Source: a bacterium (lineage in GTDB: Bacteria; Patescibacteriota; Microgenomatia; UBA8517). From it: a DNA stretch of 64,000 bases. The position numbers were made by a program, and so were the translations under genes. The stretch lies in assembly GCA_021790215.1 (NCBI GenBank), contig JAJYIG010000001.1, forward strand, positions 194-64,193. Reading direction: 5' to 3'. Positions within the stretch are counted from its first letter, which is position 1. Every line of letters begins with the position of its first letter. The notes under the pieces are model-generated. The model saw nothing but the letters and a program-made list of their open reading frames with translations, was not told the origin of the DNA and ran no database searches. This document shows, piece by piece, positions 30,132 to 62,527 of this stretch.

Positions 30132-30151
30132 TAGAATAACCTTTATATTAC

Positions 30152-30159
30152 TGTATAAT
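30152..30159 (+). promoter_or_regulatory. Extended -10 (TGTATAAT) 9 nt upstream of the LCP-gene ATG, suggesting a leaderless transcript
   Basis: Plus-strand TGTATAAT matches the TGnTATAAT consensus; the ATG is at 30169. Confidence 0.35.
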
Positions 30160-30168
30160 ATCCACCAT

Positions 30169-42428: not shown

Positions 42429-42429
42429 A

Positions 42430-43338: not shown

Positions 43339-44503
43339 GATATTCCGCCATTCTATACCAGCTGTACTTTCTAACTACAAGGTCTCTGGCATTTCTTGCA
43401 ATCAAGGATGCGAAATGTTTGTTACTAAGAACTTTCAAAACAGCATTTGCTATATCTTCAGGGTTATCTTCAATAATTATTTCTTTATTATTTTTTGCAC
43501 CAAGACCTTCAGCCCCTACTGTAGTTGTAACCAACGGTAATTTCGCAGCCATTGCTCCAAAATGTTTGAGCCTAGTCCCGCCAGGTCCTTTTAAGGGTGA
43601 GACAAAAACAGACGCCTCGTAATAAGCTTTTCTGATTCCCTCCTGATCATCTTCCTTCAGATCGTCTATCAATATATTTCCAGTTTGTCTTTCCTTAATC
43701 TCGCTTGGAATATGTTGACCGACAATCCAAACTTTTACCGTAGGATCTTTTCTATAAACAAGTGGAAAGACATCATCCAAAAGGATTTTTGCCGCCTCTA
43801 TATTTTGCAACCACTTAAAATTTGCCACAAACAACATCCTCGGATTTTTACGATTCCAGTTAACTTTAACCTTGAAAAAACTCAAGTTAACTCCGTTCGG
43901 AACCAATGCAACATCCAGATTCGGCACCAACTTCCGCATCTCAGTTTTATCAACATCTGAAACCGCAACAACTCCGTCTGCTTTTTTCCAAAATTTTGTT
44001 TCCCAAAAACGAAGTTTAGCGACATCAATTGACAATACCCATCTAACGATGGAGTTTTTAATTCCTTCAACATAATGTTTATAAACAAGATATTCTATCG
44101 TTTGTTCTACTAAAAGGATTGGGATTTTGGTATCGGGAATATGAGGCATTACATAGAATGTTTCCGCATGGATTAAGTCGTAATTAACTTTTGTTATTTC
44201 CTCTTTAACAGCAGCGCTTTCCCTGGGAGAAAGATTTCGAATAACCAAAAATGGGTAGGGCCCGAAACCAGTCAAGAGAATGTTACGTAAGGTCCAGGGT
44301 GACTTTGAGCGCCTAAATACACGAACCTTTTTACAATATTTCTCCAATTCCGGAATATACTTTTTTTCCGAGTCATCTTTTATTAAAGAAAAGAGAGTGA
44401 TCTCGTGTTTTTTGCTCAAATCCTTAATTAAATTGTAAGAACGTATTTGCCCGCCCGATGAGTCCGGAAAAGGCAAATATGGTGTAAGCATCAAAATCTT
44501 CAT
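43277..44503 (-). CDS. GT4-family glycosyltransferase
   Basis: MKILMLTPYLPFPDSSGGQIRSYNL start, C-terminal EASVFVSPLKGPGGTRLKHFGAMAAKLPLVTT. Confidence 0.8.
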   Translation of the reverse strand: MKILMLTPYLPFPDSSGGQIRSYNLIKDLSKKHEITLFSLIKDDSEKKYIPELEKYCKKVRVFRRSKSPWTLRNILLTGFGPYPFLVIRNLSPRESAAVKEEITKVNYDLIHAETFYVMPHIPDTKIPILLVEQTIEYLVYKHYVEGIKNSIVRWVLSIDVAKLRFWETKFWKKADGVVAVSDVDKTEMRKLVPNLDVALVPNGVNLSFFKVKVNWNRKNPRMLFVANFKWLQNIEAAKILLDDVFPLVYRKDPTVKVWIVGQHIPSEIKERQTGNILIDDLKEDDQEGIRKAYYEASVFVSPLKGPGGTRLKHFGAMAAKLPLVTTTVGAEGLGAKNNKEIIIEDNPEDIANAVLKVLSNKHFASLIARNARDLVVRKYSWYRMAEYLDRIYEETKYEKTRFNSNNS

Positions 44504-45981
44504 TTTGTTTTTGCAGGTAGTGGCTTAAGAAGATCGATAATTATATAATTATTAGTTTTTTCAACTGTAGTAAAACGAGATTCAATCATCTTGGTGTCAG
44601 CGCTTCCAAGATCTACTGAGACGTAGTAGCTTGCACCTTCTTTAATAATATTGTCTATCGAATTGTCAATTGCGGGCCACCCCCACCTCCCCGTCGCATA
44701 CAAAAATGCTGTATCACCGTCGTATGGTGCAACAACAAGAGCATTTTTGGGAGTAATTTTATCGACCTCTGCCCCGGCTTGGATAATCTCAGGGTGATTA
44801 ATATTATAATCTCCGGCTATTTGGTACCATCCGGTAATTAACATTACCCCAATCGAAAATATTAGGACAGTCCTTGCAAGAATCTTGTTAAAATTTGTTT
44901 GAGTCCAAAGGTAAACTGATCCGGAGGAAAGAGCCAAAGCAATCACAGGGATTGTCAGAATCTGATAATAGTCATGCATCACGTTTGCATCAGCCACCAA
45001 AACAACATAAAAAAGAGCCCCAATTAAAAACCAATGTATGAACAAATTTTTAGTCTTTGTATTAAATACGCCGAAGATAAAAGGAACAACACCCAAAGAT
45101 CCAAGTATGAGATGCCCCAACCGTTCTCCAAAAATCCAGTTCCAGTAAGCCGGATGAAACCTAATCCCATTCCCATTAAATGCCCACCAAAAAAACGGTA
45201 TCCCCATGGGAAACTTTGATTCCCACCACCTCCATAAAGCAAAAGGAATAGACCCAATTAGTACATAGGAAATTCCTTTTAAGATGAGCTTTCTATCTTT
45301 TAGAATTCTTTTAAACCCAAACTTCTGCACTGTAAGATATGCGATCGGAATGGCATAAAAACCTTGATAGGGTTTGATAAGCATCATAAGGGCAAAAAAT
45401 ACTGCTGAGAGATAGAAATAGAAATCTTTGGAATTGTCAAAAAACCTAACATACATCCAAATTGAAATCACTCCGAAAGTTACTCCCATGGGATCGGGCA
45501 AAATTACTCTTGTAAAGTAGATGTTATAAGGAATAAATAAGTAGAAAAACGCGGAGGCAATCCCTCCCCAACCACCCAAGAACCTTTTACCAATAAGATA
45601 AAGAAAAAATGCAGTAATTAGGGCAGAAAATATGGTAATCAGACGCGACCAAACCTCCAAACTAAGATGCCCCAGGTTTGTTGTAAGAAGAGCTCCGATA
45701 GCATTATAGATGGGGAATTCCACCATTCTATAACCGTTGGGATTAAAAATTCCTGTTTGAATACTCGAAATATCATGATAGCGGGGAAGAAGTAAATTTA
45801 TACCCTGTTGAATATAAACCTTTGTGACCGAAGCGGTATCTGCCTGACGCCAACTATGCCAATCAGCAACCGGATTATTAATTTTATAAAGCCTGACTAT
45901 AAATCCGACAACAATCATTAACGATAACAAAATATACTCAAGCCATCTGCTTTTTAGAATAAGATTAATTTTCTTTAACAT
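44500..45981 (-). CDS. GT-C fold membrane glycosyltransferase (PMT/ArnT-like, GT39/GT83 type; lipid-phosphate-sugar dependent)
   Basis: 493 aa with at least 10 TM. First extracytoplasmic loop carries DWHSWRQADTA; architecture is that of dolichyl/undecaprenyl-P-sugar transferases. Confidence 0.6.
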   Translation of the reverse strand: MLKKINLILKSRWLEYILLSLMIVVGFIVRLYKINNPVADWHSWRQADTASVTKVYIQQGINLLLPRYHDISSIQTGIFNPNGYRMVEFPIYNAIGALLTTNLGHLSLEVWSRLITIFSALITAFFLYLIGKRFLGGWGGIASAFFYLFIPYNIYFTRVILPDPMGVTFGVISIWMYVRFFDNSKDFYFYLSAVFFALMMLIKPYQGFYAIPIAYLTVQKFGFKRILKDRKLILKGISYVLIGSIPFALWRWWESKFPMGIPFFWWAFNGNGIRFHPAYWNWIFGERLGHLILGSLGVVPFIFGVFNTKTKNLFIHWFLIGALFYVVLVADANVMHDYYQILTIPVIALALSSGSVYLWTQTNFNKILARTVLIFSIGVMLITGWYQIAGDYNINHPEIIQAGAEVDKITPKNALVVAPYDGDTAFLYATGRWGWPAIDNSIDNIIKEGASYYVSVDLGSADTKMIESRFTTVEKTNNYIIIDLLKPLPAKTK

Positions 45982-47368
45982 AATCTAAATTTCTTGCCAA
46001 AAATACGGCAATACCCAATAGTAACCAAAAGACCATTGCAAACTTGGACGCCTCAAATATATCAATAAATAATGCAATCAGAAACGTCCCGATTAGTCCA
46101 CCGATTATCCCAGCAAGAAATCCCTTTATAAGGCCGTTTGTGTTTTTGGTTTGAAAAAAAGCGGAAACAATCTCCGAGCCAATTCGCAAAAACACCAAAA
46201 TAAACGCCGTAAGTCCTAATATACCAGTCTCTCCAAGCATTCTCAAATAATCATTATCTGTCGCAAGAGTAATAGAAGAGTACCCAGTTCCAACTAAAGG
46301 ATTTTTTTCAAGAGCTCGAATTGCCCTTGGCCATTCAACACTTAACCTTATGGATGTCGACCGATCTTCAACTGCCGGTATGGGTGTTGGTGCCACAGAA
46401 GTAGGTGTAACCTTATCAGCCAAAACAACAAAATCTGACTGTATTTGGCTTAATACTTTACTTAAGTGAAACTGCTGATAGATAACATCAAATATCCTTC
46501 CAAAACGCGTTTGTATACCACCCGACATTCCCATAAGTAGTGCGCTTACCACCACAATAGCAATCATTGTTTTGAACTTCTTTAATAGAAATAAACTCGT
46601 GGAAACCGCAATTAAATATGCAAATTGACCCATTCTGGAAATTGAAGAAATAAGAAGCCACAAGCCTGCTCCAGATACCAGAATTACAGCTAGTCTACCC
46701 AGCCAATCTTTAAATACAAAAAGAAGAGTAATTAAAATCGGAATTGTTATTACAATAAAGGCGGCCAAATCGTATGACCCTGCAAATGTCGAATTAATTT
46801 GGGCTCCCGGCGTCCAAAAAAGCGCGATTCCTCTCGAGTACTCCGCATTCTGGGTTATAATAACAGGAAAATGAAAATACTCCTGTCCGAAACCGTAGAT
46901 AAAGGCAACCGTTATTACAAAGATCAATAGTTTCAAATAAAAGGCCAGATCGTGCATAATTGTTTTTCTATTCAAAAATGCTAAGCAGGCAAAAAATGGC
47001 ACCACATACTCCACCCGCCGGAGGTATTCCAAAAGTCCGATTCCAATCCCAATAGTCTTGGTTAAAAATATTCCAGAAAGAAGTGAGATTAACGTAACTC
47101 CAAAGAAAATTAGAAACGCCCTGATAACCCTATCATTAAGGAAAGTTTTGAGGTTAATCAGTATCTTGACTGCAGTAAAAATCCCCAAACCCAAAAGGAG
47201 TAAATCCTCAAATCTAATAGCAACATAAGTTCCGGGAACACTAATTAACGGGAACTTTGGATAAAGCGGCACCATGACAATAACTGCTGCCAACAGATAT
47301 TTCGGAATTGCATTAAATAACTTTGAGAGCTTTTGCATAAATTTTCGTAGCATCACGCTTACACGCAA
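45965..47368 (-). CDS. O-antigen ligase/polymerase-like membrane protein (Wzy_C domain)
   Basis: 467 aa polytopic. SISRMGQFA ... NDYLRMLGETGILGLTAFILVF resembles the WaaL/Wzy_C H-N-x-Y-L..L.E.G..G motif region. Confidence 0.55.
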   Translation of the reverse strand: MRVSVMLRKFMQKLSKLFNAIPKYLLAAVIVMVPLYPKFPLISVPGTYVAIRFEDLLLLGLGIFTAVKILINLKTFLNDRVIRAFLIFFGVTLISLLSGIFLTKTIGIGIGLLEYLRRVEYVVPFFACLAFLNRKTIMHDLAFYLKLLIFVITVAFIYGFGQEYFHFPVIITQNAEYSRGIALFWTPGAQINSTFAGSYDLAAFIVITIPILITLLFVFKDWLGRLAVILVSGAGLWLLISSISRMGQFAYLIAVSTSLFLLKKFKTMIAIVVVSALLMGMSGGIQTRFGRIFDVIYQQFHLSKVLSQIQSDFVVLADKVTPTSVAPTPIPAVEDRSTSIRLSVEWPRAIRALEKNPLVGTGYSSITLATDNDYLRMLGETGILGLTAFILVFLRIGSEIVSAFFQTKNTNGLIKGFLAGIIGGLIGTFLIALFIDIFEASKFAMVFWLLLGIAVFLARNLDYVKEN

Positions 47369-48245
47369 TAGACCAAAGAATAATTCTTAATATTACACCA
47401 AACTTTAGGATTGCCTGAAGTACGGGAATTTTCCACTTCGGTTCATGCTTCCTGTAAAGCAATATAAGATTTTGCAACTCATATATCACAGCTTTTTCGC
47501 TTCCTGTGGTCACCTGACCAAAGTGGATTATCTTCCATTTTGGTAAATACCAAACCTCCCATCCCGCTTTTGCAATTCTATTGGAAAGTTCAACTTCCTC
47601 AACATATAGGAAAAAGTCCTCATCAAAATATCCCGCCTCCTCCATTGCTTCTTTTCTCACCCAAAAATAGGCGCCCGTTACCCAATCTTGACGGTGGGGT
47701 TTTTTGAAAAATTCATCTCCTTTATAAAAAGGCGACCAACCATGAAGGGGGTGATAAGGTTTCACAAATCTGTCAACCCAGGGAATATCATCCAAAAAGA
47801 TCATCCAAGCCAAAACCCTTGGAAGAGTCGGGTAAAAACCTCCCGATCCCTGATATGTTTTTCCGTCAGAATTAAGAAGTGCGCAGCTGGAAAGTCCCAC
47901 TTTTGGATGTTTATCCATCCAGGAAATCATCTCTTTAAAAGTTTTTTTATCAATTATTTTAGTGTCCGAATTTAAAAGCAAAATATACCTACCTTTGGCA
48001 ATCTTCATCCCATAATTATTGTTCTCTCCAAAACCATGGTTTTCGTATTTTCTAATTAGTTTTACCTGAGGGAACTCCTTTGCCACCATTTTCGGAGTGT
48101 TATCTGAAGAGGCATTATCAACTACTATGACCTCGCTTGAGATGCCTTTCAGAGAAGAAAAGACACTTTTGAGACAATCCCAGAGCATGTTCTCAAAGTT
48201 CGTACTAACAACGATAATCGACAAGTCTACTTCCTTTTGTGCCAT
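47313..48245 (-). CDS. GT2-family glycosyltransferase
   Basis: LSIIVVSTNFENMLWDCLKSV ... VVDNASSDNT ... LLLNSDT. Confidence 0.85.
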   Translation of the reverse strand: MAQKEVDLSIIVVSTNFENMLWDCLKSVFSSLKGISSEVIVVDNASSDNTPKMVAKEFPQVKLIRKYENHGFGENNNYGMKIAKGRYILLLNSDTKIIDKKTFKEMISWMDKHPKVGLSSCALLNSDGKTYQGSGGFYPTLPRVLAWMIFLDDIPWVDRFVKPYHPLHGWSPFYKGDEFFKKPHRQDWVTGAYFWVRKEAMEEAGYFDEDFFLYVEEVELSNRIAKAGWEVWYLPKWKIIHFGQVTTGSEKAVIYELQNLILLYRKHEPKWKIPVLQAILKFGVILRIILWSIACKRDATKIYAKALKVI

Positions 48246-48781
48246 AAATAAGTTAGTGTCTCCCTAAACTCTCTAAATAAAATGATTACACAGACCATCT
48301 CGGCCACAAACACAGCAATTCTAATAAAAATTGAGGTTGGCATCATCTTTATTATAATTTTCTGTCGCCAAGTCTTGCCGTCAACATAAAAAACTGGCTG
48401 ATTATCATAACTCGGAGGTTCAAATCCGTTTATATAGATACTCTCCCTAAAAGGGTGAACCAACTCTTGTAAAAAAGTACTGCTCGTCTGGTCTCTGATA
48501 ATGGTTTGTGCATCCTCAGGCGGATAGTTTAGAAGAAGCGTCGGAATTTTTATACTCAAAAAATTTGAATGATCAAATTGATTCTCGTACCAGGTAATGA
48601 CCTGGGCTCTCGTGTAATTAGTAAAATATCCCCGTCTTAGAGGAGTTTCGAGATCCGCTGGTTCCCGAGACTGAAGTGAATCCGGAGGAGGCTTGGGAAA
48701 GTTAAAATTGGGCAACGAAATATAGAAAAGAAAAACCAAAGAGGCAACAACAAGCAAGACTTTTAGTATCTTGGCACCCAT
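48227..48781 (-). CDS. Hypothetical membrane-anchored protein
   Basis: 184 aa, N-terminal TM (ILKVLLVVASLVFLFYISL), C-terminal hydrophobic segment; no recognisable domain. Confidence 0.45.
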   Translation of the reverse strand: MGAKILKVLLVVASLVFLFYISLPNFNFPKPPPDSLQSREPADLETPLRRGYFTNYTRAQVITWYENQFDHSNFLSIKIPTLLLNYPPEDAQTIIRDQTSSTFLQELVHPFRESIYINGFEPPSYDNQPVFYVDGKTWRQKIIIKMMPTSIFIRIAVFVAEMVCVIILFREFRETLTYLWHKRK

Positions 48782-49404
48782 TATATTATTATCCTTTCTT
48801 CTCCAATTACTGTAATTCTACCATCATCAACTATTATTTCCTCACCATCCTTAAGAAGGTAAATCTTTTTACCAGTATATCTCGCCCTAATCTTGCGTAG
48901 GTATTTATCCTGGAAATGTGGAAAGATATCAAAATTAACTAACCGCAATGGTTTTATAACCTCAGTACCCCGTTCGTTATCCACAAAACCGAAGCTTGAG
49001 ACTTGTAAGGTCTGGCCAGCAACCATTGCTCCCGCACTTGATCCTACATACCATGCCGTCTTTAAAAGCGTCTTAATATATAAATCGACTTTACATCTCC
49101 TAATCCAATACATAAGGTATCCGGGCATTCCTCCTGCGAACCAAATTACATCTTGATCTTTTAGCTCTTTTATAACAGATTCATTCCGATAATCCTCCAA
49201 CAAAATCGGCTTTACCATTGCATCAAGCGTGTTAACTACCTTCCACGAACCATCTTTCTTTGTCTTCCAATGACCCCAATCTTGCTCTCCATTCGAAGCT
49301 GTGGGAATGTAGGCGATCCTCTTTCCCTTAAATCCCCCAAGAGATTCTTCTAGTCTAGCCAGTGTCAGTTCGTTTTTTACATTCGAAGCCAAAAAAAGTT
49401 TCAT
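48781..49404 (-). CDS. Peptidase S51 family (dipeptidase E/cyanophycinase-like, class I glutamine-amidotransferase fold)
   Basis: IWFAGGMPGYLMYWIRR ... YVGSSAGAMVAG matches the S51 GGNTF...GxSAG Ser nucleophile region. Confidence 0.65.
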   Translation of the reverse strand: MKLFLASNVKNELTLARLEESLGGFKGKRIAYIPTASNGEQDWGHWKTKKDGSWKVVNTLDAMVKPILLEDYRNESVIKELKDQDVIWFAGGMPGYLMYWIRRCKVDLYIKTLLKTAWYVGSSAGAMVAGQTLQVSSFGFVDNERGTEVIKPLRLVNFDIFPHFQDKYLRKIRARYTGKKIYLLKDGEEIIVDDGRITVIGEERIII

Positions 49405-49410
49405 AAGAAG

Positions 49411-50007
49411 CTACTGAAAAAGTCTGGCCCTCCCCAACTTGTAGTTTGGATTTTTGTTCTTTCTTTCCCCAATTACTTTGGCAGGAACCCCCCCCACAAT
49501 CGCAAAATCCGGAACATCTTTTGTAACAACCGCTCCGGCTGCAACAACCGCACCTTTACCGATTTTAACTCCTGGCAAGATTATCGCTCTGGGACCGATA
49601 AAGACGTAATCTCCAATTTGCACAGGCTCTTCCCGGGCTGAAAAATCTTCATTTTCCAAATCATGCTCCGAATTATAAATCATAACGGATGAAGCTATGT
49701 CAGTATGGTTACCTATATAAAGAGATGCTCTGCCATCTAAAAAAGCGTGATCACCCACGATAGTATCCTCACCTATTATTATTCCGTTAGGCTCAAAAAA
49801 ATTGGCCCACATGTGTATCACAGAGCCTCTGCCGATCTTCATTCCTGCCATAATATAGAAAAATTTACGAACAAAGTGCGACGGAATGTGGCTTACCCAC
49901 CTTAATATCATCAACTCCAGATCAAGAAAATAGTTATAAAAACGGTTCAGGACCTTGGGGAGGGCCTGCCCTAAAGTTAATGATCTGCCTGTTCTATCTT
50001 TAAACAT
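49411..50007 (-). CDS. Left-handed beta-helix (hexapeptide-repeat) acyl/acetyltransferase, sugar O-acetyltransferase-like
   Basis: Hexapeptide repeats [17 protein letters not shown]...[14 protein letters not shown]...[32 protein letters not shown]. Confidence 0.85.
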
Positions 50008-51124
50008 TAGTAATTATTTCTAGAGTTTCTCTTGCTGTTTTCTCCCAGGAAAACTTCTTAACCTGACTTAAACCCTTTTCAACTAAACTATTATACTTCA
50101 ATTTTGAGGCCGAGATCACTTTTTCAATTCCATCTGCAATGCTTCTTGTACTCTTCGGGTTGACCAAAACTCCTGCATCTCCAACAACCTCGGGAAGTGA
50201 GCCCGTGTTTGAAACAACAACGGGAACTCCGCAAGCCATAGCATTTAGTGCATCAAGACCAAAACCCTCCCAAAAAGAAGGAAGTACAAAAACTTTTGCA
50301 CCTTTAATTAAACCCTGTTTATCAACCTCCGGAATAAAGTCTGTAAAAATAACATCTTTTTCAAGACCAAGTTCCTCGACCTTTTTAAAAATCGGTTCAT
50401 AAAGCCACCCTTTTTTACCAGCAATGACCAACTTTAACTCATGACCCGTATTCTTTAATCTCAAAAAAGCCTCAACAAGACCTTCAATATTTTTGCTTGG
50501 CTTGAGGGTTCCCAAATAAAGTATATAGTCATCAACTATGGAGTATCTGCTCCTTATACGTCGCACAACCTTGTTAGAAACAAGGTTATTAAATTGATTT
50601 GGATCATAAGCCAAATATGTAATGTGTATTTTAGATTTTGCAGAGGGGTAGTGTCGTACAATATCGTCTTTTGTGCTTTGTGAGATTGCAATGATAGACT
50701 TTGATACAAAAATACTAATAGCAGTCCATATCTTTAATTGCCAAAAGTCCTTTTTTGTAAATTGTGTCGAATATTCGAGATATCCAAGATCCATTATTGA
50801 ACTTATCTTGGGCATGGGAGCAAGAAAAGGAACATAATGACTGGGAGAGAAGAAAATGTCAGGTTTGTCTTTCGCAAAAATTAAGTCTGGTGTCAGCTTG
50901 GTCAGAATCCACATTTTACCTCCCGGAATTATCTTATATTTAAAATGAGACGTTTCTTCCGGCATGTCCGGAAGAGGATCCTCTTTAAGATAAACTACAA
51001 GACTATGGCTTCTTTTCCATTCATCCTGTAGTTTCCAAAGATTTTGCAAGAGTTCAAAGGCATATTGATTCACCCCAACCCTATTCTTTATGTTCGCCTC
51101 ATTACCATCAATCCCTATCAACAT
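50000..51124 (-). CDS. GT4-family glycosyltransferase
   Basis: [39 protein letters not shown]; tandem paralog of 51188..52270. Confidence 0.85.
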
Positions 51125-51187
51125 TTAACTTATTGTAAAGCAACCCACAGACATTCACAAAGGCATAGCTAACTAACATATATTAAG

Positions 51188-52270: not shown

Positions 52271-52336
52271 GACTTTTATTTCATATAAAATCCACTATCT
52301 GAGATTCTTGAATCGTTTAATTGTACTAATAGAATT

Positions 52337-53668: not shown

Positions 53669-53674
53669 TGATAG

Positions 53675-54574: not shown

Positions 54575-55773
54575 TTAGATAATTTAAAAACGGAATAACT
54601 GTTATTAACATCGGTCAATTTAGTTATCTTATACGCTCCCCCAGCCTTAATCTCCCAGGTGTCACTCTTTGCAAAATTATATCCGTTCGGGGCTAATACA
54701 TACAGAAGTTTAATACCCTTATAGTCCGTAACCGGAAGAGGATCCTTCTTAAATTGATAGATAAGAAAATACCTTAAAGGATAAGCTTGTTTATCAAAAT
54801 CAATTACCGACGCAACGTTAAAATCCTTTTTAGCATCAAGGGTAATTGCCTCGGCTGCCTTTTTCTGCTCCGCCACACTTAAGTAAATTGTTTCCGGGAT
54901 CGGATTTTTCAAATTCCAAAATATGTAAAGTCCGAGAACTGGAGAAATAAGCAAAAGGTTAAATCTGGACAAAAGCGCTCCGATAAAAACCGGAACAACC
55001 GAAAAAATGGGAAGCAGATAATAATAAGAAAAAGAAGCATCACTTTTTCCCATAAGAGTATCGATAAAATATTTCCAAATTGTTGTTGTCTCGTAAAAAT
55101 TATGCCGCATGTCAAAAAGAAACATTGGCAAGTTTCCTACAATAACTCCGACGACAAACATTAAAAACGAAGCAATCTTACTCTTGCTCTTAAAAATATT
55201 TATTAAAAATGTTACAAGGGCATAGGCAATAAATAAGATCTGAAGCCCAATACCAATCCCCGACAAAATTCCCAACGTCAAGAAATAATTGAGTTTGTAT
55301 TCGCTGAAATTCCTAAGAGTGATATAAAGAATTAGAATTCCGACAAGGGGTAGAAAATTGTAGTTCCATATAAAATATGAGTGATAAATCATGTAATTAT
55401 TAAACAAGAAGAGCACGGAAGCTATAATCCCAGCCTTGACGCCATAAAATTGTTTGGCAACCAAATATACAACAAGACCTGTGAATATATTAAGGAGAGC
55501 AAAGGCGACTGTAATCTTTGCGGGATCGAGACTGGAAAATAAGATTAGGGGCAAAAGAAGATAATTAAAAAACGCACCGGAAAAGATTATGTGAGAATTA
55601 CTGTCCTGCCGAAAATATTCCTGACCCAAGAGAGAGGGCTTTTTTAAATACTCAAGAGACGTAATTATGCTTCGCGATTGTTCCGTCCAAAAAATAATTT
55701 TCTGATCAAAATTATTAAAACGTACAAAATACGCAAAGAGAAAAATGCTACAAAGAATTAAAAAGTATTTCAT
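54571..55773 (-). CDS. Polytopic membrane protein with C-terminal soluble domain (possible GT-C-like; unassigned)
   Basis: 400 aa, about 9 TM then a ~110-aa extracytoplasmic tail; no diagnostic motif. Confidence 0.45.
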   Translation of the reverse strand: MKYFLILCSIFLFAYFVRFNNFDQKIIFWTEQSRSIITSLEYLKKPSLLGQEYFRQDSNSHIIFSGAFFNYLLLPLILFSSLDPAKITVAFALLNIFTGLVVYLVAKQFYGVKAGIIASVLFLFNNYMIYHSYFIWNYNFLPLVGILILYITLRNFSEYKLNYFLTLGILSGIGIGLQILFIAYALVTFLINIFKSKSKIASFLMFVVGVIVGNLPMFLFDMRHNFYETTTIWKYFIDTLMGKSDASFSYYYLLPIFSVVPVFIGALLSRFNLLLISPVLGLYIFWNLKNPIPETIYLSVAEQKKAAEAITLDAKKDFNVASVIDFDKQAYPLRYFLIYQFKKDPLPVTDYKGIKLLYVLAPNGYNFAKSDTWEIKAGGAYKITKLTDVNNSYSVFKLSK

Positions 55774-56773
55774 ATTTCTCAGTTATTTTATCCCAATCAA
55801 ACTTTTCTGCCTGAGTCCTCGGTTTATTCTCCCAATTCGTATTCATAGCTTTTTGTAAAGCCTTAGCATATTCATCAATATCGGTTGGGTCTACCAGGAT
55901 TCCTGCCTCACCAACTATTTCTCTTCTTACAGGATCGTCTGTGGCAACTACAGGCAGTCCTGATGCCATAGCTTCTACCAAAACGTTTCCAAACGCCTCA
56001 GAGGAAGCTGAGGGCAATGTAAAAACATCGGCTGCCCCATAAACTTCCGGCATTTTCTCAAAAGGCACGGATATTACCTCGAATCTTTCTTTACCCAACT
56101 TCTTAATTCCTAGATCGTAGATCTTGTCTCTTAATTCCCCTCCTCCACCGGCAATAATAAGCTTTACGTTCTTAAGTTTGGCCGCTGCATCAATGGTAAG
56201 ATTTAATCTCTTTTGTTCCGTAAATGCACCAACAGCTAAAATGATTTTTGTTTTATTCCTTAATCGATAATCTCTAACCTTAAATCTAGTCAGATCAACA
56301 CCGTTCGGGATTTTGATGATCTTTGCAAACGGAACTTTTTTTGCCCACTGTTCTGCTTTAGTCGAAAGAGCAACAAAAGCGTTTGGAAAACACCAAAGAT
56401 TGTTAAGATCATCCCATCCAATCCCCGATTGCCCGGAAATCACCATTTTAGATCCCCGAATCCAAGTTAAAATCCTGATAAACGCCGGCTGCCACCCACC
56501 ATTGAGAGGAATAATAATATCCGGTTTTTCTTTCCAAATTTCTGGAAGTTTTTTAAGGGTAAAGCCCGCAATTGCACGACCGTTTCTATCAAGAAATGGT
56601 CTTGAAAGACGGCTTTTAGACCTTGGAGGAACTATGATATCTCCCCCTGATATTATCTTTACTTTATTATTCTCGGAAAGCCTTTTGGAAAGTTCCTTTA
56701 CAAAAGTTTCAGCGCCTCTTGAGGTAGTATCCTGATAAATATTTAAAAACAAAACCTTCATTTTTGTATTCAT
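55748..56773 (-). CDS. GT4-family glycosyltransferase
   Basis: FTLPSASSEAFGNVLVEAMASGLPVVATDDPVRREIVG. Confidence 0.85.
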   Translation of the reverse strand: MNTKMKVLFLNIYQDTTSRGAETFVKELSKRLSENNKVKIISGGDIIVPPRSKSRLSRPFLDRNGRAIAGFTLKKLPEIWKEKPDIIIPLNGGWQPAFIRILTWIRGSKMVISGQSGIGWDDLNNLWCFPNAFVALSTKAEQWAKKVPFAKIIKIPNGVDLTRFKVRDYRLRNKTKIILAVGAFTEQKRLNLTIDAAAKLKNVKLIIAGGGGELRDKIYDLGIKKLGKERFEVISVPFEKMPEVYGAADVFTLPSASSEAFGNVLVEAMASGLPVVATDDPVRREIVGEAGILVDPTDIDEYAKALQKAMNTNWENKPRTQAEKFDWDKITEKYEILFNSL

Positions 56774-56794
56774 GTATTAATACATTAAAACAGC

Positions 56795-58159
56795 TTATTT
56801 GGGAACCAGTATCTCAATCCCGTCAACTTTATTGCTAATTTTATAGTTTGCTGAAACAAAAGCGTAGACCTTTTCCGGAATGTAAGAGGAAAGTCCTGTT
56901 TCAGAATATTGTTGAAGTAAAATTAATCTTGGTTTTGAGTTTTCCAAATCCGCAACTTCCTTTTCCTGAACTCCGTGAATTTCCTGGTACCAGGAAAGTT
57001 GCGGAACCCACGGATCAGTTGCAGGAAGCGTATCGGTTAATGCATAAAGACTATCCCAATAGTTCATTACAAAAATCTTTTCTCCCGGAATCGAGTTCTG
57101 CCTCACATAAGAAGCCACGTCCTGAACATCCTGCTCGTAGAACCTAATACCCTCGTCATAATTCCTGATGAAAAATACCGCCAATAAATATAACGATGCA
57201 AAAACATAAAATATTATAAGGAAACGGATTAAAACATTTTTCCAATTTAAGTTTGTAAATACCAGTCCAGAGACGATTGCAAGATATGGGACAGCGGGCT
57301 GAAAATGAAAATATTCAAACCGGGGGTAAGCCCCCAAACAACCGACAAAAGCCCAAATGGTCATTTGCAAGGGACGAACCCTTGCAGAACTATGAGATTT
57401 AAAAAACAAAGGAATGAAAATCGCAAAAGGAACTGCCGCAACAGCCAGGCTTCTCAAGTCCGGTAATTGTATCTGGCCCGAAGCTTTTGGCAAAATAAAA
57501 ACACCGAAATTCACAGCCCAGTAATAAAAACTTGGTAAAAGGTGAATGGCAAAAAGTAAAAACACGAAAGAGGTTAAAACTACCAACCCACCCAAAACAA
57601 AGTTCTTGCCGTCTTTAAAAATTGCTTTGGACCCGAAAATTTCGAGAGCCACGGGAACGATAAAATAAGCCGCCGTTTGTTTGGTAAAAACAGCCAGCGC
57701 AAAAAGAACGCCAGCAGCAAACCACTTTTTGATGCGCAAAAAGTAAAACGAGGCAAACATCCAAAAACCCATAAATAGATCAAACCAAAGTCCGTTCCCA
57801 TCAAAGAATAATTGCCAGATAACAAATGATGTAAGTGCAATGAGCGCAACTCTCCGCCCCCAGAGCCTCCTGACAACCCAAAAGAAAAAGGCATCGAAGG
57901 CCAAAATTAATCCCCAGGTAAATATCTGCAGTTGGGAAATTCCAACTCCGAATAATTTGTAAAAAACTGTAAGAAAGACAAGCAGTAAAGGTGTATGGGC
58001 AATTGCGATGTCTTTGTAGGGCAAAAGGCCGTGCAATGTTAAATATGGCCAGACAAGCATCTCCGGCCAGGCAGTAAATTTAAATTTCAACAGAAGAAGC
58101 AGGTGTAGTAGTAAAATCCCAACAAGAAATACTAATACTATTTTATTTATTCTACTCAT
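56795..58159 (-). CDS. Polytopic membrane protein (possible GT-C/mannosyltransferase-like; unassigned)
   Basis: 454 aa, 10+ TM, aromatic-rich loops; no diagnostic motif recognised. Confidence 0.45.
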   Translation of the reverse strand: MSRINKIVLVFLVGILLLHLLLLLKFKFTAWPEMLVWPYLTLHGLLPYKDIAIAHTPLLLVFLTVFYKLFGVGISQLQIFTWGLILAFDAFFFWVVRRLWGRRVALIALTSFVIWQLFFDGNGLWFDLFMGFWMFASFYFLRIKKWFAAGVLFALAVFTKQTAAYFIVPVALEIFGSKAIFKDGKNFVLGGLVVLTSFVFLLFAIHLLPSFYYWAVNFGVFILPKASGQIQLPDLRSLAVAAVPFAIFIPLFFKSHSSARVRPLQMTIWAFVGCLGAYPRFEYFHFQPAVPYLAIVSGLVFTNLNWKNVLIRFLIIFYVFASLYLLAVFFIRNYDEGIRFYEQDVQDVASYVRQNSIPGEKIFVMNYWDSLYALTDTLPATDPWVPQLSWYQEIHGVQEKEVADLENSKPRLILLQQYSETGLSSYIPEKVYAFVSANYKISNKVDGIEILVPK

Positions 58160-58209
58160 TAATTTCTATTATTAAATACACTACATTAATATATATCAAT
58201 GTAGTCAGA

Positions 58210-59049
58210 TCAATAACCAACCTGCCCTTTCCATAATCTTCTTTTAATTTTTCTTAGTGGTGTTTCGAAAAATGCCCTTGTCTCGAAGTACCCCGACATG
58301 GCTTCCCAAGGGCTACTTATAAAATCAGGTTTATTTTCAAAAAATACTTCCGGGTAATAATAATCTAAAGGAAATGGTTTACCAATTTCATATTTTAATT
58401 TTTTCGCCCTCTTAATTACTTCCAGATCGTTTGACCTTTCTCCGCCTCTCGGAAGAAATGTCGCGTGAAGGTATGGTACATCTACAAACTTTAGCTTGTC
58501 AGAATCTCTATCCTGAATCATCTTACCATCACCGTCTGCCCAACCCCAAACCCCGTGAGCTCCCTTTGAGTGAAGTCCGGGAATATTTCTTTTTATAGCA
58601 CGCAAATTATAGTGCCCCACCTTATCTCCGAATTTATACCTACCTGCAGCTTCTTCCTGAAAATGAAAAATATCACCGACTAAATTAATTGTTTGAACAA
58701 CTACCGATTCAATACTTTCCCCCTCATTCTTTATAGTTCCAATGACCTTCTTAATTGAATCTTCAAACCATATTTCATCTGCATCTAGCATTAAAAACCA
58801 GTCAGATTCTGTTTCATCAAGCATTTCTTGCCGGACACCCGTAAACTCTTCTGCTGTTTTTTGCAAACGGCTTTTGAAAATAATTTTGTCCGGATATTTC
58901 TTAGCTAACTCTTTTTCAATTTCGATACTCCCATCTGTACTGCCCGCATCCCAAAGAAGCAATTTATCTACATGATTAATAACTGAAGATACCGAATACC
59001 AAAGCCGTCTTGCTTCGTTTTTAACGAGTGTGTGTGCCCAAATCTTCAT
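58210..59049 (-). CDS. GT-A fold (GT2-like) glycosyltransferase
   Basis: LLWDAGSTDGS ... FLMLDADEIWF (DxD), no TM. Confidence 0.6.
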   Translation of the reverse strand: MKIWAHTLVKNEARRLWYSVSSVINHVDKLLLWDAGSTDGSIEIEKELAKKYPDKIIFKSRLQKTAEEFTGVRQEMLDETESDWFLMLDADEIWFEDSIKKVIGTIKNEGESIESVVVQTINLVGDIFHFQEEAAGRYKFGDKVGHYNLRAIKRNIPGLHSKGAHGVWGWADGDGKMIQDRDSDKLKFVDVPYLHATFLPRGGERSNDLEVIKRAKKLKYEIGKPFPLDYYYPEVFFENKPDFISSPWEAMSGYFETRAFFETPLRKIKRRLWKGQVGY

Positions 59050-59121
59050 AAATCTATTTTACCCCATTTCTTTCTTTAAAACTCGGAGCTATACTTGTAT
59101 CCAACTTAGAACGAGCTTAAA

Positions 59122-60984
59122 ATGTGCGGGGTTGCAGGCATAGCTTACTTCAATAAAAATAAAGAGATTCATCCACACGAGCTAACGTTAATGGCAAAGG
59201 CCCTTATTCATCGGGGACCTGATGATGGAGGAATATTTCTGTCGGAAGATAAACGAGTGGGTTTTGCGTCAAGGAGATTATCCATCATCGACCTATCCAA
59301 AAAGGGCCACCAGCCCATGACATATTTAGATAGATACACAATTACTTATAACGGTGAAATATATAACTTCCAGGAAGAAAAAAGGAAACTTCAAAAACTC
59401 GGCTTTTCCTTCAAATCTGACACTGACACTGAAGTAATCCTTGCCTTATATGCAAAATATGGGAAAAATTGCCTGGAACATCTACGGGGTATGTTTGCTT
59501 TTGTAATTTATGATCATATCGAAAAAACATTATTTATGGCCAGGGACAGAATCGGGAAAAAACCATTAAAGTACTTACTCGATGACCAAAAGATAATTTT
59601 TGCCTCTGAACTCAAAGCAATTCTTACACAAACTGGGATCAAGAAGATTCCGGATTATAATGCAATTCATCTTTACCTGACTTATGGATACACCCCATCC
59701 CCCCTAACCGGATTTGAAGGGATCAAAAAGCTTGAACCCGGAACTTACATATTTATAAATCTTAGAAGAAAAACTTTTGACAAAGTCAGATATTGGCAGC
59801 CCAAGTTTAATAATAAACTTCAACTATCAGAAAAGCAGTGGTGTCAAAAAATATTGGATACACTAACTGAATCCACAAAAATCAGAATGGTTTCAGATGT
59901 CCCGATTGGTGCATTTCTTTCCGGCGGGGTTGACAGTAGCGGTGTTGTCGCCACAATGGCAGAGCTTTCAGGTAAACCCATTGAGACTTTTACAATAGCT
60001 TTTAATAGCAAAGAATATAACGAGGCGCCTTATGCTGCGAGGGTTGCGAAAATGTATAAGACTCACCATCACATTCTAACAGCCAAACCAAAATCGGTAG
60101 ATATCCTGCCGTCAATTGTAAAACAGTATGAAGAACCGTTTTCCGATGCCAGTGCGGTTGTATCCTTCCTGGTATCTGAGATGACCAAAAAATATGTAAC
60201 CGTAGCCCTAAATGGAGATGGTGGAGATGAAAATTTTGCGGGATACCCCAATAGATATATGCGACTCAGACGTGATGTTGATTATGACTTTTGGATACAA
60301 AATATAAGACCGGTTGCTGCGAAACTACTACAAAGTTTTCCGAAAGCAAGAAATTTCTTTGAAAAAGCAAAACTGCCTTTATATATGAGGTTTGCATCAT
60401 ACAATAAAGTTTTCTCTCCGGATGAACTGATGAACCACGCCAGGGGACCAATACTTGATCTTGCCAGACATCAAAATCCATATCAGATTGTAGAATCATG
60501 CTTCAAAACATTTAATGGGAAAGATATAAAAGATGCGGGACTTAAATTTGATTTACTATATTTTCTGCCGGATCAACTTCTTACAAAGATGGATATTGCA
60601 TCAATGGCGGTTTCTCTTGAAGCCAGATCTCCTTTATTGGATCAGAACATGATCGAATTGGCCGGAAAAATTCCTTTTGAGCTCAAAGTTAAAAATGGGG
60701 TATCAAAATATATACTAAAAAAGGCCTTTGAAAAAATTGTACCCAAGGAGTGTCTTTATAGACCCAAGGTGGGTTTTGGTCTTCCTTTAAACAAATGGTT
60801 TTCTGGTACGCTTAATAAATATGCAAAAAGTTTGCTGCTTTCCAAGGATTCTCGGGTTAGCGAAATATTCGACAGAGAATATGTAAAAAATATCGTCGAG
60901 GATAACAACAAACATGACGATTTTGGACCGAGACTTTGGAACTTAATGTGTATGGAGCTTTGGTTCAGAGCTTATTTCACCTAG
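59122..60984 (+). CDS. asnB: Asparagine synthetase B-type glutamine amidotransferase (N-terminal Ntn Cys2 with PP-loop synthetase domain)
   Basis: MCGVAGIAY (Cys2 nucleophile), PP-loop SGGVDSS. 620 aa. It is the only plus-strand gene inside the glycan island. Confidence 0.88.
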   Translation: MCGVAGIAYFNKNKEIHPHELTLMAKALIHRGPDDGGIFLSEDKRVGFASRRLSIIDLSKKGHQPMTYLDRYTITYNGEIYNFQEEKRKLQKLGFSFKSDTDTEVILALYAKYGKNCLEHLRGMFAFVIYDHIEKTLFMARDRIGKKPLKYLLDDQKIIFASELKAILTQTGIKKIPDYNAIHLYLTYGYTPSPLTGFEGIKKLEPGTYIFINLRRKTFDKVRYWQPKFNNKLQLSEKQWCQKILDTLTESTKIRMVSDVPIGAFLSGGVDSSGVVATMAELSGKPIETFTIAFNSKEYNEAPYAARVAKMYKTHHHILTAKPKSVDILPSIVKQYEEPFSDASAVVSFLVSEMTKKYVTVALNGDGGDENFAGYPNRYMRLRRDVDYDFWIQNIRPVAAKLLQSFPKARNFFEKAKLPLYMRFASYNKVFSPDELMNHARGPILDLARHQNPYQIVESCFKTFNGKDIKDAGLKFDLLYFLPDQLLTKMDIASMAVSLEARSPLLDQNMIELAGKIPFELKVKNGVSKYILKKAFEKIVPKECLYRPKVGFGLPLNKWFSGTLNKYAKSLLLSKDSRVSEIFDREYVKNIVEDNNKHDDFGPRLWNLMCMELWFRAYFT

Positions 60985-62527
60985 ATGGGCACATATTTTC
61001 TAAAGATCCTGCGTAAATATATGCCAAATCAACTCCGTTTTCTCTCGCCACATAAGTAGGATTATTCGCCCCATAAAATGCATCCAACTCAGGATCCTTT
61101 TCCAACTGAATATAATAGGCTTCTACAAAAAACAGCTTTTGGTTTTTCCAGTTAGGACTAAAGCGGTATGGGTAATAATATGGAATTGTCGAGTTTCCGC
61201 ATCCTAAAGCACCAATTTCCTTTACTTCAGGGTAGCACTTAAGAATGTAATCCGCCGCCGCCTTAGACCCTTCACAAAGCCCCACAAGGTCATATTTTCT
61301 AGCATTCACGCTTCCGCCTATGAAAACATTATAATAAAGATCGTGGTACGGGAAGAGCGAAATAAACAAATAAAAAAACCAAATAAAAATTGCAGAGATC
61401 GCCACCACTCTTAACCACAACGTCTTTAGCTTACCGGCAGCCCAGACAATAACCCAAGAAGAAAATGCATATATCCACGGCCAGACCGGAAGTTCATACC
61501 GCACACCAAGCTTCTTGGCGGAAAAAGAAATTGAGGCCAAGAATAAAACAATAAATACAGTAATGCTCCCGCCGTGTTTAAAATCGACAATTTTCTTCCT
61601 GACCAAATTTAGGTAGATAAAAACGAGAAGCCCCAAAATGATTATAGGCGGAGTCCTGACCAATATCTCAAAAAGATAATAATAGGGTGGGGGGTTGTTG
61701 GTAAGCTGCCCGAAAAAATAATTATTTATTCCGCCACCAACCAAAGCCGTTTCTCTAAAAAGATATTCAGGTATGGCTAAAAATAAATTTTCCCAGCATG
61801 TCGGCCACGCAAGAGAAATAAAGATAAAGGACAAAAAGACGGAGGATAAGAATTTCGTAAGCTCGTCCTTCCAGTTTTTATAATTTAGAAATATCTGTAA
61901 GAAAAATATCGGAAAGACAAGAATCCCGTCCGGCTTAGTCAAAAAGGCTGTGGCTGCAGTTAGAGAAGAAATAATAACCGACCAATTTCTATTTTTTATC
62001 AAAAGGTAGGAAGAGAGCGAAACAAAAGTAAAAGCCGTTAAGAATATATCATTCATAATCAGCTTACTATTCGCAACAAAAATGGGGTCCAAAAGTAGCA
62101 AAAGAGATGAAACTGCGGCAACCTTCTTATTAGTAAATCTTTTTACGAATAGATAATAAAAGACAATAAAAACTGCCGAGAAAAAAATAACTGCTCCTCT
62201 TCCGGCTATATAATCCTGAAAAACGTTGCGGCTGACAACACTCTGCCCTTTGCCCAAATAAATCAAAGGGAAACCGGAAATCACTGACAAGGGAATTGCA
62301 ATAGCCTCTGTGTCGGTTTTACTCGTCCACCAGGCAGTCTTGAAATAATTAAAGTTCTTAGTTTTTATCGCCAATGCGGTTTCTTTGCCGCGAACCATCC
62401 ACGTAATCTCATCGGGATAGACCGGTGTTTCACTTAAACGATAAAAACGCGTTGCTAAAAATAATCCGAAAAGGATGAGGATAAAAATAATTTCTTTCCG
62501 GTGTCTAACCATGTTACTTGCTTTCAA
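60977..62527 (-). CDS. GT-C fold membrane glycosyltransferase (PMT/ArnT-like)
   Basis: 516 aa polytopic. First loop YPDEITWMVRG (DE motif) with the ArnT/PMT-like architecture. Confidence 0.6.
   Translation of the reverse strand: MKASNMVRHRKEIIFILILFGLFLATRFYRLSETPVYPDEITWMVRGKETALAIKTKNFNYFKTAWWTSKTDTEAIAIPLSVISGFPLIYLGKGQSVVSRNVFQDYIAGRGAVIFFSAVFIVFYYLFVKRFTNKKVAAVSSLLLLLDPIFVANSKLIMNDIFLTAFTFVSLSSYLLIKNRNWSVIISSLTAATAFLTKPDGILVFPIFFLQIFLNYKNWKDELTKFLSSVFLSFIFISLAWPTCWENLFLAIPEYLFRETALVGGGINNYFFGQLTNNPPPYYYLFEILVRTPPIIILGLLVFIYLNLVRKKIVDFKHGGSITVFIVLFLASISFSAKKLGVRYELPVWPWIYAFSSWVIVWAAGKLKTLWLRVVAISAIFIWFFYLFISLFPYHDLYYNVFIGGSVNARKYDLVGLCEGSKAAADYILKCYPEVKEIGALGCGNSTIPYYYPYRFSPNWKNQKLFFVEAYYIQLEKDPELDAFYGANNPTYVARENGVDLAYIYAGSLENMCPSR

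Follow-up and report, generated by a model that had tools for sequence, protein, structure and literature searches.

Does one locus of an uncultured Patescibacterium encode several membrane glycosyltransferases of the GT-C type, and might these add sugars to a single glycan in turn on the outer face of the membrane? The window analysed here, a 64,000-nucleotide stretch of a Microgenomatia contig, had been taken in a sequence-only reading to hold three confident and two possible GT-C paralogues, a series thought to be uncommon outside mycobacterial, archaeal and eukaryotic systems. All five ORFs, named below by their first coordinate (Table 1), are present where that reading had placed them and lie on the minus strand, and all five encode membrane proteins of GT-C fold class A (ArnT/PMT/ALG-like), for which glycosyltransferase activity is predicted from family and fold. 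We consider it probable (roughly 0.6) that they are five diverged GT-C enzymes of one envelope-glycan cluster, with assembly in the cytoplasm, flipping, and further additions outside.

Fold and mutual homology of the five proteins

The three confident assignments hold in Pfam, where 44500, 52337 and 60977 score above gathering (26.1 bits for PMT_2, 22.7 for PMT, PF02366) with PMT_2 and/or PMT, and 54571 and 56795 fall below it. Only 60977 exceeds the PMT threshold (42.8 bits), the other four matching PMT_2 alone; PF02366 appears in the precomputed annotation of some 44500 orthologues, and PF13231 is carried by most 56795 homologues. Public annotation of relatives already reads ‘glycosyltransferase family 39’, and some homologues of 44500, the most conserved of the five, bear the name ‘glycosyltransferase family 39 protein’; the best 120 listed for it are 66-84% identical, after one 100%-identical representative. 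The family profile of 60977 (A4) matches yeast Pmt1 in the PDB (E 1.1e-5).

For 54571 and 56795 we made AF2 models (pLDDT 93.4; pLDDT 84 and pTM 0.85, respectively) and compared them with the PDB by Foldseek. The best matches were almost all GT-C proteins, led by ArnT, Pmt4 and ALG12 and continuing through ALG9/3, STT3/AglB/PglB and AftA/B, with PIG-U/GAB1, PimE and Emb also present and a clean gap to non-GT-C folds, so that the two possible members are indeed GT-C proteins and not unrelated transporters. The top match of both was the ArnT of Cupriavidus metallidurans (CAZy GT83; 5F15/5EZM), at a query-normalised TM-score of 0.63-0.65; for 56795 (E 9e-7, 0.64-0.65) it was followed by AglB, STT3, AftA, ALG9/12 and DPY19. 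The weakest of the five on sequence is 54571, and its structure is clear.

The suggested paralogy holds at the level of the superfamily only. All ten pairs were linked by hhalign at probabilities of 93.3-97.6% (93-98%), well past chance and with the 60977 profile deepened, and the control proteins (Wzy_C, Wzx and 48227) gave at most 2% to any of the five. Within this range lie 44500 against the other four (95.3-97.6%), 52337 against the others (93.3-97.6%) and the A4 profile against the A1 and A2 profiles (95.9 and 95.8%). The top pairwise BLASTP match, in contrast, had an E value of 0.001 at 23% identity, and since pairs are about 23% identical or lower, the five are ancient paralogues. Each has its own orthologous group across Microgenomates.

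As had been proposed, each protein has at least 10 TM segments, namely 10-12 by a Kyte-Doolittle hydropathy count, which is crude and not a topology prediction; the AF2 helix lists of 54571 and 56795 agree with it. The motifs quoted for the three confident members (ADWHSWRQADTA, LWLDEATT, also written SLWLDEATT, and YPDEITW) are exact translations, directly follow the first hydrophobic segment (TM1) and are invariant or almost so in orthologues from other genomes. Acidic residues occupy positions D40/D48 (44500), D33/E34 (52337), E31 (54571), E33 (56795) and D39/E40 (60977) in 90% or more of orthologues (18 in the case of 52337), and in the 44500 family D40, W41-Q46 and D48-A50 are invariant across 20 sequences. 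In hhalign the loop acidic residues of the five families fall at most a few positions apart. Where the other families have their D/E, the 44500 family aligns R45-Q46, flanked by Asp on both sides, in a register that is uncertain; 54571 and 56795 have one conserved Glu instead of a DE or DxD pair. Furthermore, the Lys of a TKP/SKQ/IKP motif is aligned in three of the five families.

Independent gene calls put the start of 52337..53668 at Met17, for a protein of 427 aa, and that of the Wzy_C gene at Met11; the N-termini of orthologues favour the start that retains TM1.

Content and conservation of the cluster

The five genes belong to an envelope-glycan cluster of about 25 kb and 25 genes (38478..63800), together with a PGT, ManC, six GT4, four GT2, Wzx, Wzy_C and an acetyltransferase. 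From 59049 down to 35831, 22 co-directional genes follow one another with gaps of -62 to +66 nt, an operon-like packing, and 60977 overlaps the Wzx gene by 14 nt. The sole plus-strand gene of the cluster, AsnB-like, is variable and occurs in about half of the loci compared.

Table 1. Features of the envelope-glycan cluster, with functions predicted from the evidence given and, for the GT-C proteins, the motif of the first external loop
Coordinates	Strand	Feature	Evidence	Loop motif (coordinates)
38478..39164	-	Initiating polyprenyl-phosphate phosphoglycosyl transferase (PGT)	Bac_transf 199.3 bits; NCBIfam EPS_sugtrans 238.9, below cut-off	
39136..40242	-	ManC-like GDP-mannose pyrophosphorylase	Pfam; NCBIfam GMP_PMI 280.5 bits	
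40223..41347	-	GT4	Pfam	
41313..42428	-	GT4	Pfam	
42430..43338	-	GT2	Pfam	
43277..44503	-	GT4	Pfam	
44500..45981	-	GT-C class A glycosyltransferase, 493 aa	PMT_2 53.9 bits; ~10 TM	ADWHSWRQADTA (45832..45864)
45965..47368	-	Wzy_C polytopic protein (O-antigen ligase/polymerase type)	Wzy_C 45.8 bits (gathering 31.7)	
47313..48245	-	GT2	Pfam, synteny	
48227..48781	-	Conserved bitopic protein, unknown family; candidate chain-length regulator	Synteny	
48781..49404	-	Peptidase_S51	Pfam, synteny	
49411..50007	-	Hexapeptide acetyltransferase	Pfam, synteny	
50000..51124	-	GT4	Pfam, synteny	
51188..52270	-	GT4	Pfam, synteny	
52337..53668	-	GT-C class A glycosyltransferase, 443 aa (possibly 427)	PMT_2 53.2 bits	LWLDEATT (53558..53581)
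53675..54574	-	GT2 (GT-A), two C-terminal hydrophobic segments	Glycos_transf_2 108.5 bits	
54571..55773	-	GT-C class A fold protein, 400 aa	PMT_2 18.9 bits (below gathering); AF2 model	FWTEQSRS (55669..55692)
55748..56773	-	GT4, between GT-C genes 54571 and 56795	Glycos_transf_1 106.1 bits	
56795..58159	-	GT-C class A fold protein, 454 aa	PMT_2 23.8 bits (below gathering); AF2 model	AWPEM (58058..58072)
58210..59049	-	GT2, first gene of co-directional run	Pfam	
59122..60984	+	AsnB-like glutamine amidotransferase	Asn_synthase 313.1 bits; NCBIfam asn_synth_AEB 450.7	
60977..62527	-	GT-C class A glycosyltransferase, 516 aa	PMT 42.8, PMT_2 39.3 bits	YPDEITW (62399..62419)
62514..63800	-	Wzx/MOP-type flippase	Polysacc_synt 90.2 bits; Polysacc_synt_3 48.4	

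The Wzy_C protein, which the sequence-only reading had passed over, is a predicted sixth polytopic enzyme for lipid-linked sugars; it has no detectable kinship to the five (hhalign at most 0.9%) and adjoins 44500 in related loci.

Among the 23 loci compared, which come from Microgenomates, Woesebacteria and other Patescibacteria MAGs, about 18 keep the gene order, at 36-84% protein identity. The core, four GT-Cs (all but 60977) and Wzy_C, is found in nearly every full-length locus, the four GT-C genes being in fixed order and interleaved with GT4 genes over deep divergence. In total 4-6 GT-C copies occur per locus, and 60977 is a variable member with an orthologue in only 3 of the 23. The cluster is a conserved feature of Microgenomates-class Patescibacteria and makes up about 3% of genomes of ~0.8-1 Mb (819 kb in the related complete genome CP011214.1).

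A proposed pathway and its alternatives

In the pathway that we favour, the Bac_transf phosphoglycosyl transferase would prime polyprenyl phosphate, the GT4 and GT2 enzymes would lengthen the chain in the cytoplasm, with GDP-mannose from the ManC homologue as one likely donor, and the Wzx protein would flip the lipid-linked glycan. On the outer face, the GT-Cs would draw on polyprenyl-phosphate-monosaccharide donors to attach more sugars or to form branches, each enzyme with its own linkage or acceptor specificity and with the conserved acidic residue of its first external loop predicted to serve the transfer; such donors and an outward-facing active site are what family membership suggests for all five. 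The Wzy_C protein would polymerise or ligate the product, whose attachment to peptidoglycan may then fall to an LCP enzyme (30040..31236). The window contains both this LCP gene and a dcw cluster, as would suit a peptidoglycan wall bearing a secondary polymer. The conserved synteny marks the five as one functional unit and makes it reasonable to infer that they act on a single glycan in series, although a shared target molecule for all five does not follow from it.

Profile comparisons gave no confident polyprenyl-phosphate-sugar synthase in the cluster. The best candidate is the GT2 53675, which sits between GT-C genes 54571 and 52337 and adjoins their orthologues in most loci; its family profile matches chondroitin synthase (1e-33), one of the soluble GT2s, ahead of DPMS (4e-18), GtrB (2e-11) and ArnC (3e-11), and its score with the ArnC model is 40.6 bits (cut-off 529). 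Among the ORFs of at least 100 aa scanned in the cluster, none had a GtrA-family Pfam match; the Wzx-type protein is predicted to supply the flippase that a multi-component glycosylation system requires. The cluster has no family match to a Wzz/PCP chain-length regulator beside its PGT, Wzx and Wzy_C.

The strongest alternative, which we hold to be possible and clearly less likely than the pathway above, is that the five are independent decorators, each in its own GT-A/flippase/GT-C module adding one side-chain sugar, possibly to different acceptors (wall polysaccharide, lipoglycan, teichoic-acid-like polymers), and not working sequentially on one chain. In monoderm bacteria, decoration is the role most often documented for small GT-Cs of the PMT_2/YfhO type (PMC8035078, PMC9574508). 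Close to the GT-C genes there are GT2 genes whose products carry hydrophobic segments at the C-terminus (53675, 47313 and 42430), and the variation in GT-C number between loci is what decoration modules would predict. However, the fixed order and GT4 interleaving of the four core GT-Cs exceed what is typical of accessory decoration genes, and no GT2 is demonstrable as a polyprenyl-phosphate-sugar synthase.

A more far-reaching form of the sequential pathway, somewhat less probable again and to be regarded as speculative, is a bacterial counterpart of the eukaryotic ALG logic fixed across a class of ultra-small bacteria, with a PGT/GT4 start inside, flipping by a Rft1-like Wzx, obligatory ordered maturation by 4-5 GT-Cs outside and en bloc transfer by Wzy_C to protein or wall. 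If true, the cluster (~3% of a ~0.8-Mb genome) would encode an essential envelope glycoconjugate pathway and not accessory decoration.

The five, or some of them, might instead work in the manner of PMTs, glycosylating not a polysaccharide but proteins that are secreted or lie on the surface (pilins, S-layer, lipoproteins); we hold this to be improbable. The source names that suggest this are automatic annotations, ArnT and the ALG enzymes, with lipid and glycan acceptors, match equally well, and the embedding with PGT, Wzx, Wzy_C and many GT4/GT2 genes is typical of lipid-linked oligosaccharide or polysaccharide assembly. Compared with the protein O-mannosyltransferases (GT39; yeast Pmt1/2/4, M. 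tuberculosis Pmt), the proteins are smaller (400-516 aa), lie in a polysaccharide-type cluster and have no Pfam MIR match at E up to 0.1.

PIG-U and GAB1 are GT-C-fold proteins without transferase activity, and their presence among the structural matches, together with the single Glu, means that catalytic competence of 54571 and 56795 is not guaranteed. Even so, we think it very unlikely that either is a non-catalytic subunit that, like PIG-U/GAB1 or members of heteromeric GT-C assemblies, scaffolds a catalytic partner or presents substrate to it, a reading in keeping with their sub-gathering Pfam scores and lack of a DE pair, because their orthologues all keep the loop Glu along with many further polar residues and catalytic GT-Cs outscore PIG-U in both fold searches.

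Relation to known systems and significance

The likeness to ArnT extends to a similar size and a C-terminal soluble domain. Identity to ArnT, however, is 12-14%, and no other arn genes are found among the annotated ORFs. An identity as lipid A L-Ara4N transferase was rejected, given that none of the five matches the NCBIfam ArnT model at E up to 0.1 and that arn neighbours are lacking; a lipid A acceptor would not be expected in this lineage, judging by its Gram-positive-like gene content.

The mycobacterial and corynebacterial sets for LM/LAM and arabinogalactan (PimE, MptA/B/C, AftA-D, EmbA-C) and the eukaryotic ALG3/9/12/6/8/10 series combine GT4-type cytoplasmic steps, a flip and several GT-C steps on polyprenyl-phosphate sugars. 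The logic proposed for our cluster is the same overall. Its small PMT_2-type proteins, however, form one operon-like array, whereas the enzymes of those systems fall in different CAZy families and, for the most part, are either dispersed over the genome or far larger.

Closer precedents are the multi-component glycosylation systems of monoderm bacteria (CsbB/GtcA/YfhO, GtlA/GtlB, GacI-J-K-L, L. lactis CsdAB, WpsI/WpsJ). Their GT-Cs, which have 8-13 TM and carry the modified DxD on an external loop, diverge strongly in sequence and are recognised through structural similarity to ArnT/AglB; in cell-wall-polysaccharide loci they are partnered with a GT-A and a flippase of the GtrA or Wzx type, and several GT-Cs per locus have been described in Firmicutes (PMC8035078, PMC9574508). 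Given these precedents and the presence of the cluster in most of the 23 related loci, the rarity initially claimed for such a series was overstated. GtlB is a PMT_2 protein, as here. The present cluster differs in having 4-5 GT-Cs fixed in one place and alternating with GT4/GT2 genes, in that neither GtrA nor a proven C55-P-sugar synthase was found in it, and in its host, an uncultured Patescibacterium. It is thus a system of a known kind in a new instance, the small-genome Patescibacteria (Microgenomates).

What is known of GT-C enzymes is itself unchanged by these findings. To our knowledge, the cell envelope of Patescibacteria (CPR) is biochemically almost uncharacterised, and in the literature that we searched we found no paper on GT-C enzymes or on this cluster in these bacteria. 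The five orthologous groups, each with a diagnostic first-loop motif and two of them missed by Pfam at gathering, offer concrete targets for heterologous expression. The order kept across Microgenomates and Woesebacteria, and the share of the genome devoted to it, point to a major lineage-defining surface glycopolymer, which could matter for host attachment and phage recognition.

Distant kinship of the five GT-C proteins

The five open reading frames (ORFs) that the sequence-only reading had taken for paralogous GT-C membrane glycosyltransferases, three confidently and two possibly, all lie where it placed them, and the three motifs it quoted are exact on translation. A crude hydropathy count gave 10-12 membrane segments in each of the five. 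Because the Pfam gathering score for PMT_2 is 26.1 bits, 44500, 52337 and 60977 (proteins are named by their start coordinates) stand above the threshold and 56795 and 54571 slightly below it, so that the domain scan taken alone returns the same division into three and two.

Features of the glycan cluster and of the neighbouring division and cell-wall genes
Feature	Coordinates	Strand	Pfam score (bits)	Motif or loop residues
Glycan gene cluster	38478..63800
GT-C 44500	44500..45981	-	PMT_2 53.9	DWHSWRQADTA (45832..45864); D40 and D48
GT-C 52337	52337..53668	-	PMT_2 53.2	LWLDEATT (53558..53581); D33-E34
GT-C 54571	54571..55773	-	PMT_2 18.9	E31
GT-C 56795	56795..58159	-	PMT_2 23.8	E33
GT-C 60977	60977..62527	-	PMT 42.8, PMT_2 39.3	YPDEITW (62399..62419); D39-E40
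Wzy_C protein	45965..47368	-
48227 protein	48227..48781	-
GT2 53675	53675..54574	-
Wzx flippase	62514..63800	-
DUF4012 protein	36420..38453	-
LCP (LytR_cpsA_psr) family gene	30040..31236	+
4-TM ORF	29649..30332	-
CofD-like gene	21676..22704	-
Mur ligase with NTP_transferase domain	19650..21647	-
Mur ligase with MurB domains	17389..19653	-
FemAB-family protein + DegT/DnrJ aminotransferase	11158..13430	-
SEDS paralogue	8898..10121	-
SEDS paralogue	164..1192	-

For each of the two doubtful members, 54571 and 56795, there are hundreds of homologues; all stem from metagenome bins of Patescibacteria/Microgenomates, and PF13231 is already annotated in many of them. AlphaFold2 models built from 30-sequence alignments of each family (A1 and A2) were confident (pLDDT 93.4 and pTM 0.90 for 54571; pLDDT 84.0 and pTM 0.85 for 56795), and fold searches with these models ruled out an unrelated transporter family, the alternative that the sequence-only reading had set against its own proposal; the predicted fold of both is GT-C. 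Within the GT-C class A superfamily, the five proteins are of the PMT_2 kind. An identity as ArnT was rejected, there being no ArnT NCBIfam match at E up to 0.1 and no other arn genes among the annotated ORFs.

The relationship among the five is scarcely detectable by single-sequence BLASTP and phmmer (best BLASTP pair 44500/54571, E 0.001, 23% identity) and required profiles, which we built for each protein from its orthologues in 23 related genome loci and compared by hhalign. Probabilities were 97.6, 96.9, 96.1 and 95.3% for 44500 with 52337, 56795, 54571 and 60977, 95.9, 95.8 and 93.3% for 52337 with 60977, 56795 and 54571, and 95.8% for 54571 with 56795 (95.2% in a second run, A1 against A2). 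The 60977 family matched those of 54571 and 56795 weakly with a three-sequence profile, and at 95.9% and 95.8% after that profile had been deepened with matches from an exhaustive HMMER search. The membrane-protein controls, Wzy_C, Wzx and the 48227 protein, gave at most 2% against the five, i.e. no detectable relationship. By profile comparison, then, all five are homologous; the proposed paralogy stands in this respect, but at superfamily depth only. Across Microgenomates each has a conserved orthologous group of its own, and the tightest is that of 44500 (66-84% identity over the best 120 matches, besides one 100%-identical representative). PDB sequence searches with the single sequences of 44500, 52337 and 60977 gave no matches, and those with the family profiles of 56795, 54571 and 44500 nothing meaningful; the deepened 60977 profile was the only one to reach Pmt1 and Pmt4 (yeast Pmt1, E 1.1e-5).

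A glycan cluster conserved among Microgenomates

The cluster is minus-strand coding sequence nearly throughout, an AsnB-like amidotransferase being its sole plus-strand gene, and 22 genes follow one another from 59049 to 35831 with gaps of -62 to +66 nt. Besides the GT-C genes, Wzx and Wzy_C, it encodes a Bac_transf phosphoglycosyl transferase, a ManC-like GDP-mannose pyrophosphorylase, six GT4 and four GT2 enzymes, a WcaF-like acetyltransferase and a Peptidase_S51. HMMs of the five families found no further GT-C class A genes elsewhere in the window, which also lacks tRNA and Rfam features; a promoter and terminator scan stayed at chance level. The gene directly downstream of the phosphoglycosyl transferase encodes a DUF4012 protein of 677 aa, which has one hydrophobic segment and may belong to the same envelope system.

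Retrieval via the 54571 family gave the 23 loci, whose bins belong to Microgenomates, Woesebacteria, Amesbacteria, Daviesbacteria and unclassified Patescibacteria; about 18 of the loci have a gene order identical to that of the window: Wzx, (60977), (AsnB), GT2, GT-C 56795, GT4, GT-C 54571, GT2, GT-C 52337, GT4, GT4, acetyltransferase, (S51), 48227, (GT2), Wzy_C, GT-C 44500, GT4, with variable genes in brackets. When searched with the five-family HMMs, full-length loci showed 4-6 genes of GT-C class A in 21 kb; Wzy_C and the four core families are nearly always there, and the 60977 type occurs in three loci only. Nine loci with a Microgenomates-type cluster (L002, L008, L009, L014, L017, L018, L021, L022 and L023) bear the record title 'uncultured Gammaproteobacteria/Pseudomonadales bacterium', most likely a placeholder or wrong taxonomic label.

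In Candidatus Woesebacteria GW2011_GWA1_44_23 (locus L020, LCIL01000014.1, 5717..7747), a 54571-type GT-C and a 53675-type GT2 are joined in one ORF of 676 aa. We rejected it as a Rosetta-stone link: since the GT2 has lost its start (the first 26 residues) and the neighbouring 52337 orthologue is missing from the locus, the joined ORF is probably a deletion variant or assembly artefact rather than a functional fusion.

The 48227 protein (184 aa) is syntenic in about 20 of the 23 loci, two genes upstream of Wzy_C, and has no Pfam or NCBIfam match. Its N- and C-terminal hydrophobic segments flank an external loop of about 110 aa, a topology resembling Wzz/WpsH-type co-polymerases, which makes it a candidate chain-length regulator.

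The sequence-only reading had called such a series of GT-C enzymes uncommon outside mycobacterial arabinomannan or archaeal/eukaryotic systems. This was too strong, because relatives already carry public names ('glycosyltransferase family 39 protein' or 'Dolichyl-phosphate-mannose-protein mannosyltransferase') and several GT-Cs in one polysaccharide locus are known from Firmicutes (PMC8035078, PMC9574508). What appears undescribed in the literature searched is the cluster as a conserved, lineage-wide feature of Microgenomates, together with its two GT-C families below the Pfam thresholds.

A proposed envelope-glycan assembly line

The best-supported reading of the cluster, by analogy, is an envelope-glycan assembly line, in which a lipid-linked glycan would be made in the cytoplasm and flipped by Wzx, the GT-C enzymes would extend or branch it outside with polyprenyl-phosphate sugars as donors, and the Wzy_C protein would polymerise or ligate the product. 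This proposal is modelled on what has been documented for multi-component transmembrane glycosylation systems (PMC8035078, PMC9574508), and on the mycobacterial and ALG pathways. NCBIfam and PDB comparisons demonstrated no polyprenyl-phosphate-sugar synthase among the cluster's GT2s (the matches of the candidate, GT2 53675, are generic GT2 and cover its N-terminal half only), and a Pfam scan of the cluster's ORFs of at least 100 aa revealed no GtrA-type flippase.

The core GT-C order is fixed and interleaved with GT4 genes, so we lean towards a common product of the four core enzymes; that they act instead as independent side-chain decorators seems rather unlikely. Among the five, 60977 alone matches the Pfam PMT model. 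PMT-like protein glycosylation is an improbable function for the GT-C enzymes.

In the loop directly after TM1, all five families keep an acidic residue in at least 90% of orthologues; for 60977 this count covers three sequences, but the residues are invariant in its deepened 31-sequence alignment (A4). The acidic residues of different families lie at most a few positions apart in profile alignments, the aligned positions in the 44500 family being R45-Q46 with an Asp on either side. Three of the families, 60977, 56795 and 44500, also share an aligned Lys within a TKP/SKQ/IKP motif, which 52337 and 54571 do not. By analogy with the GT-C family, we infer that the conserved loop residues would be catalytic. 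That one or both of 54571 and 56795 are non-catalytic subunits of GT-C fold is hardly credible.

The cell-wall setting

The LCP-family gene apart, the remainder of the window is taken up by the genes of a division and cell-wall (dcw) cluster, among them Mur ligases, MraY, FtsW, MurG, FtsA, FtsZ and a PBP. One dcw gene combines three Mur ligase domains with MurB domains and reads as a MurC-like/MurB fusion, and in another a Mur ligase with all three domains is fused to an NTP_transferase domain. The FemAB-family protein and DegT/DnrJ aminotransferase lie between MraY and the Mur ligases, the CofD-like gene (2-phospho-L-lactate transferase family) lies within the dcw cluster, and two SEDS (FtsW/RodA) paralogues with 32% identity occupy its opposite ends.

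The long ORF of the LCP gene overlaps the minus-strand 4-TM ORF by about 290 nt, and the start of one or the other is therefore probably wrong. The LCP gene, some 7 kb away from the glycan cluster, could plausibly encode the ligase attaching the cluster's product to peptidoglycan. With the dcw cluster and an LCP gene in the same window, the organisation fits a peptidoglycan wall bearing a secondary polymer.
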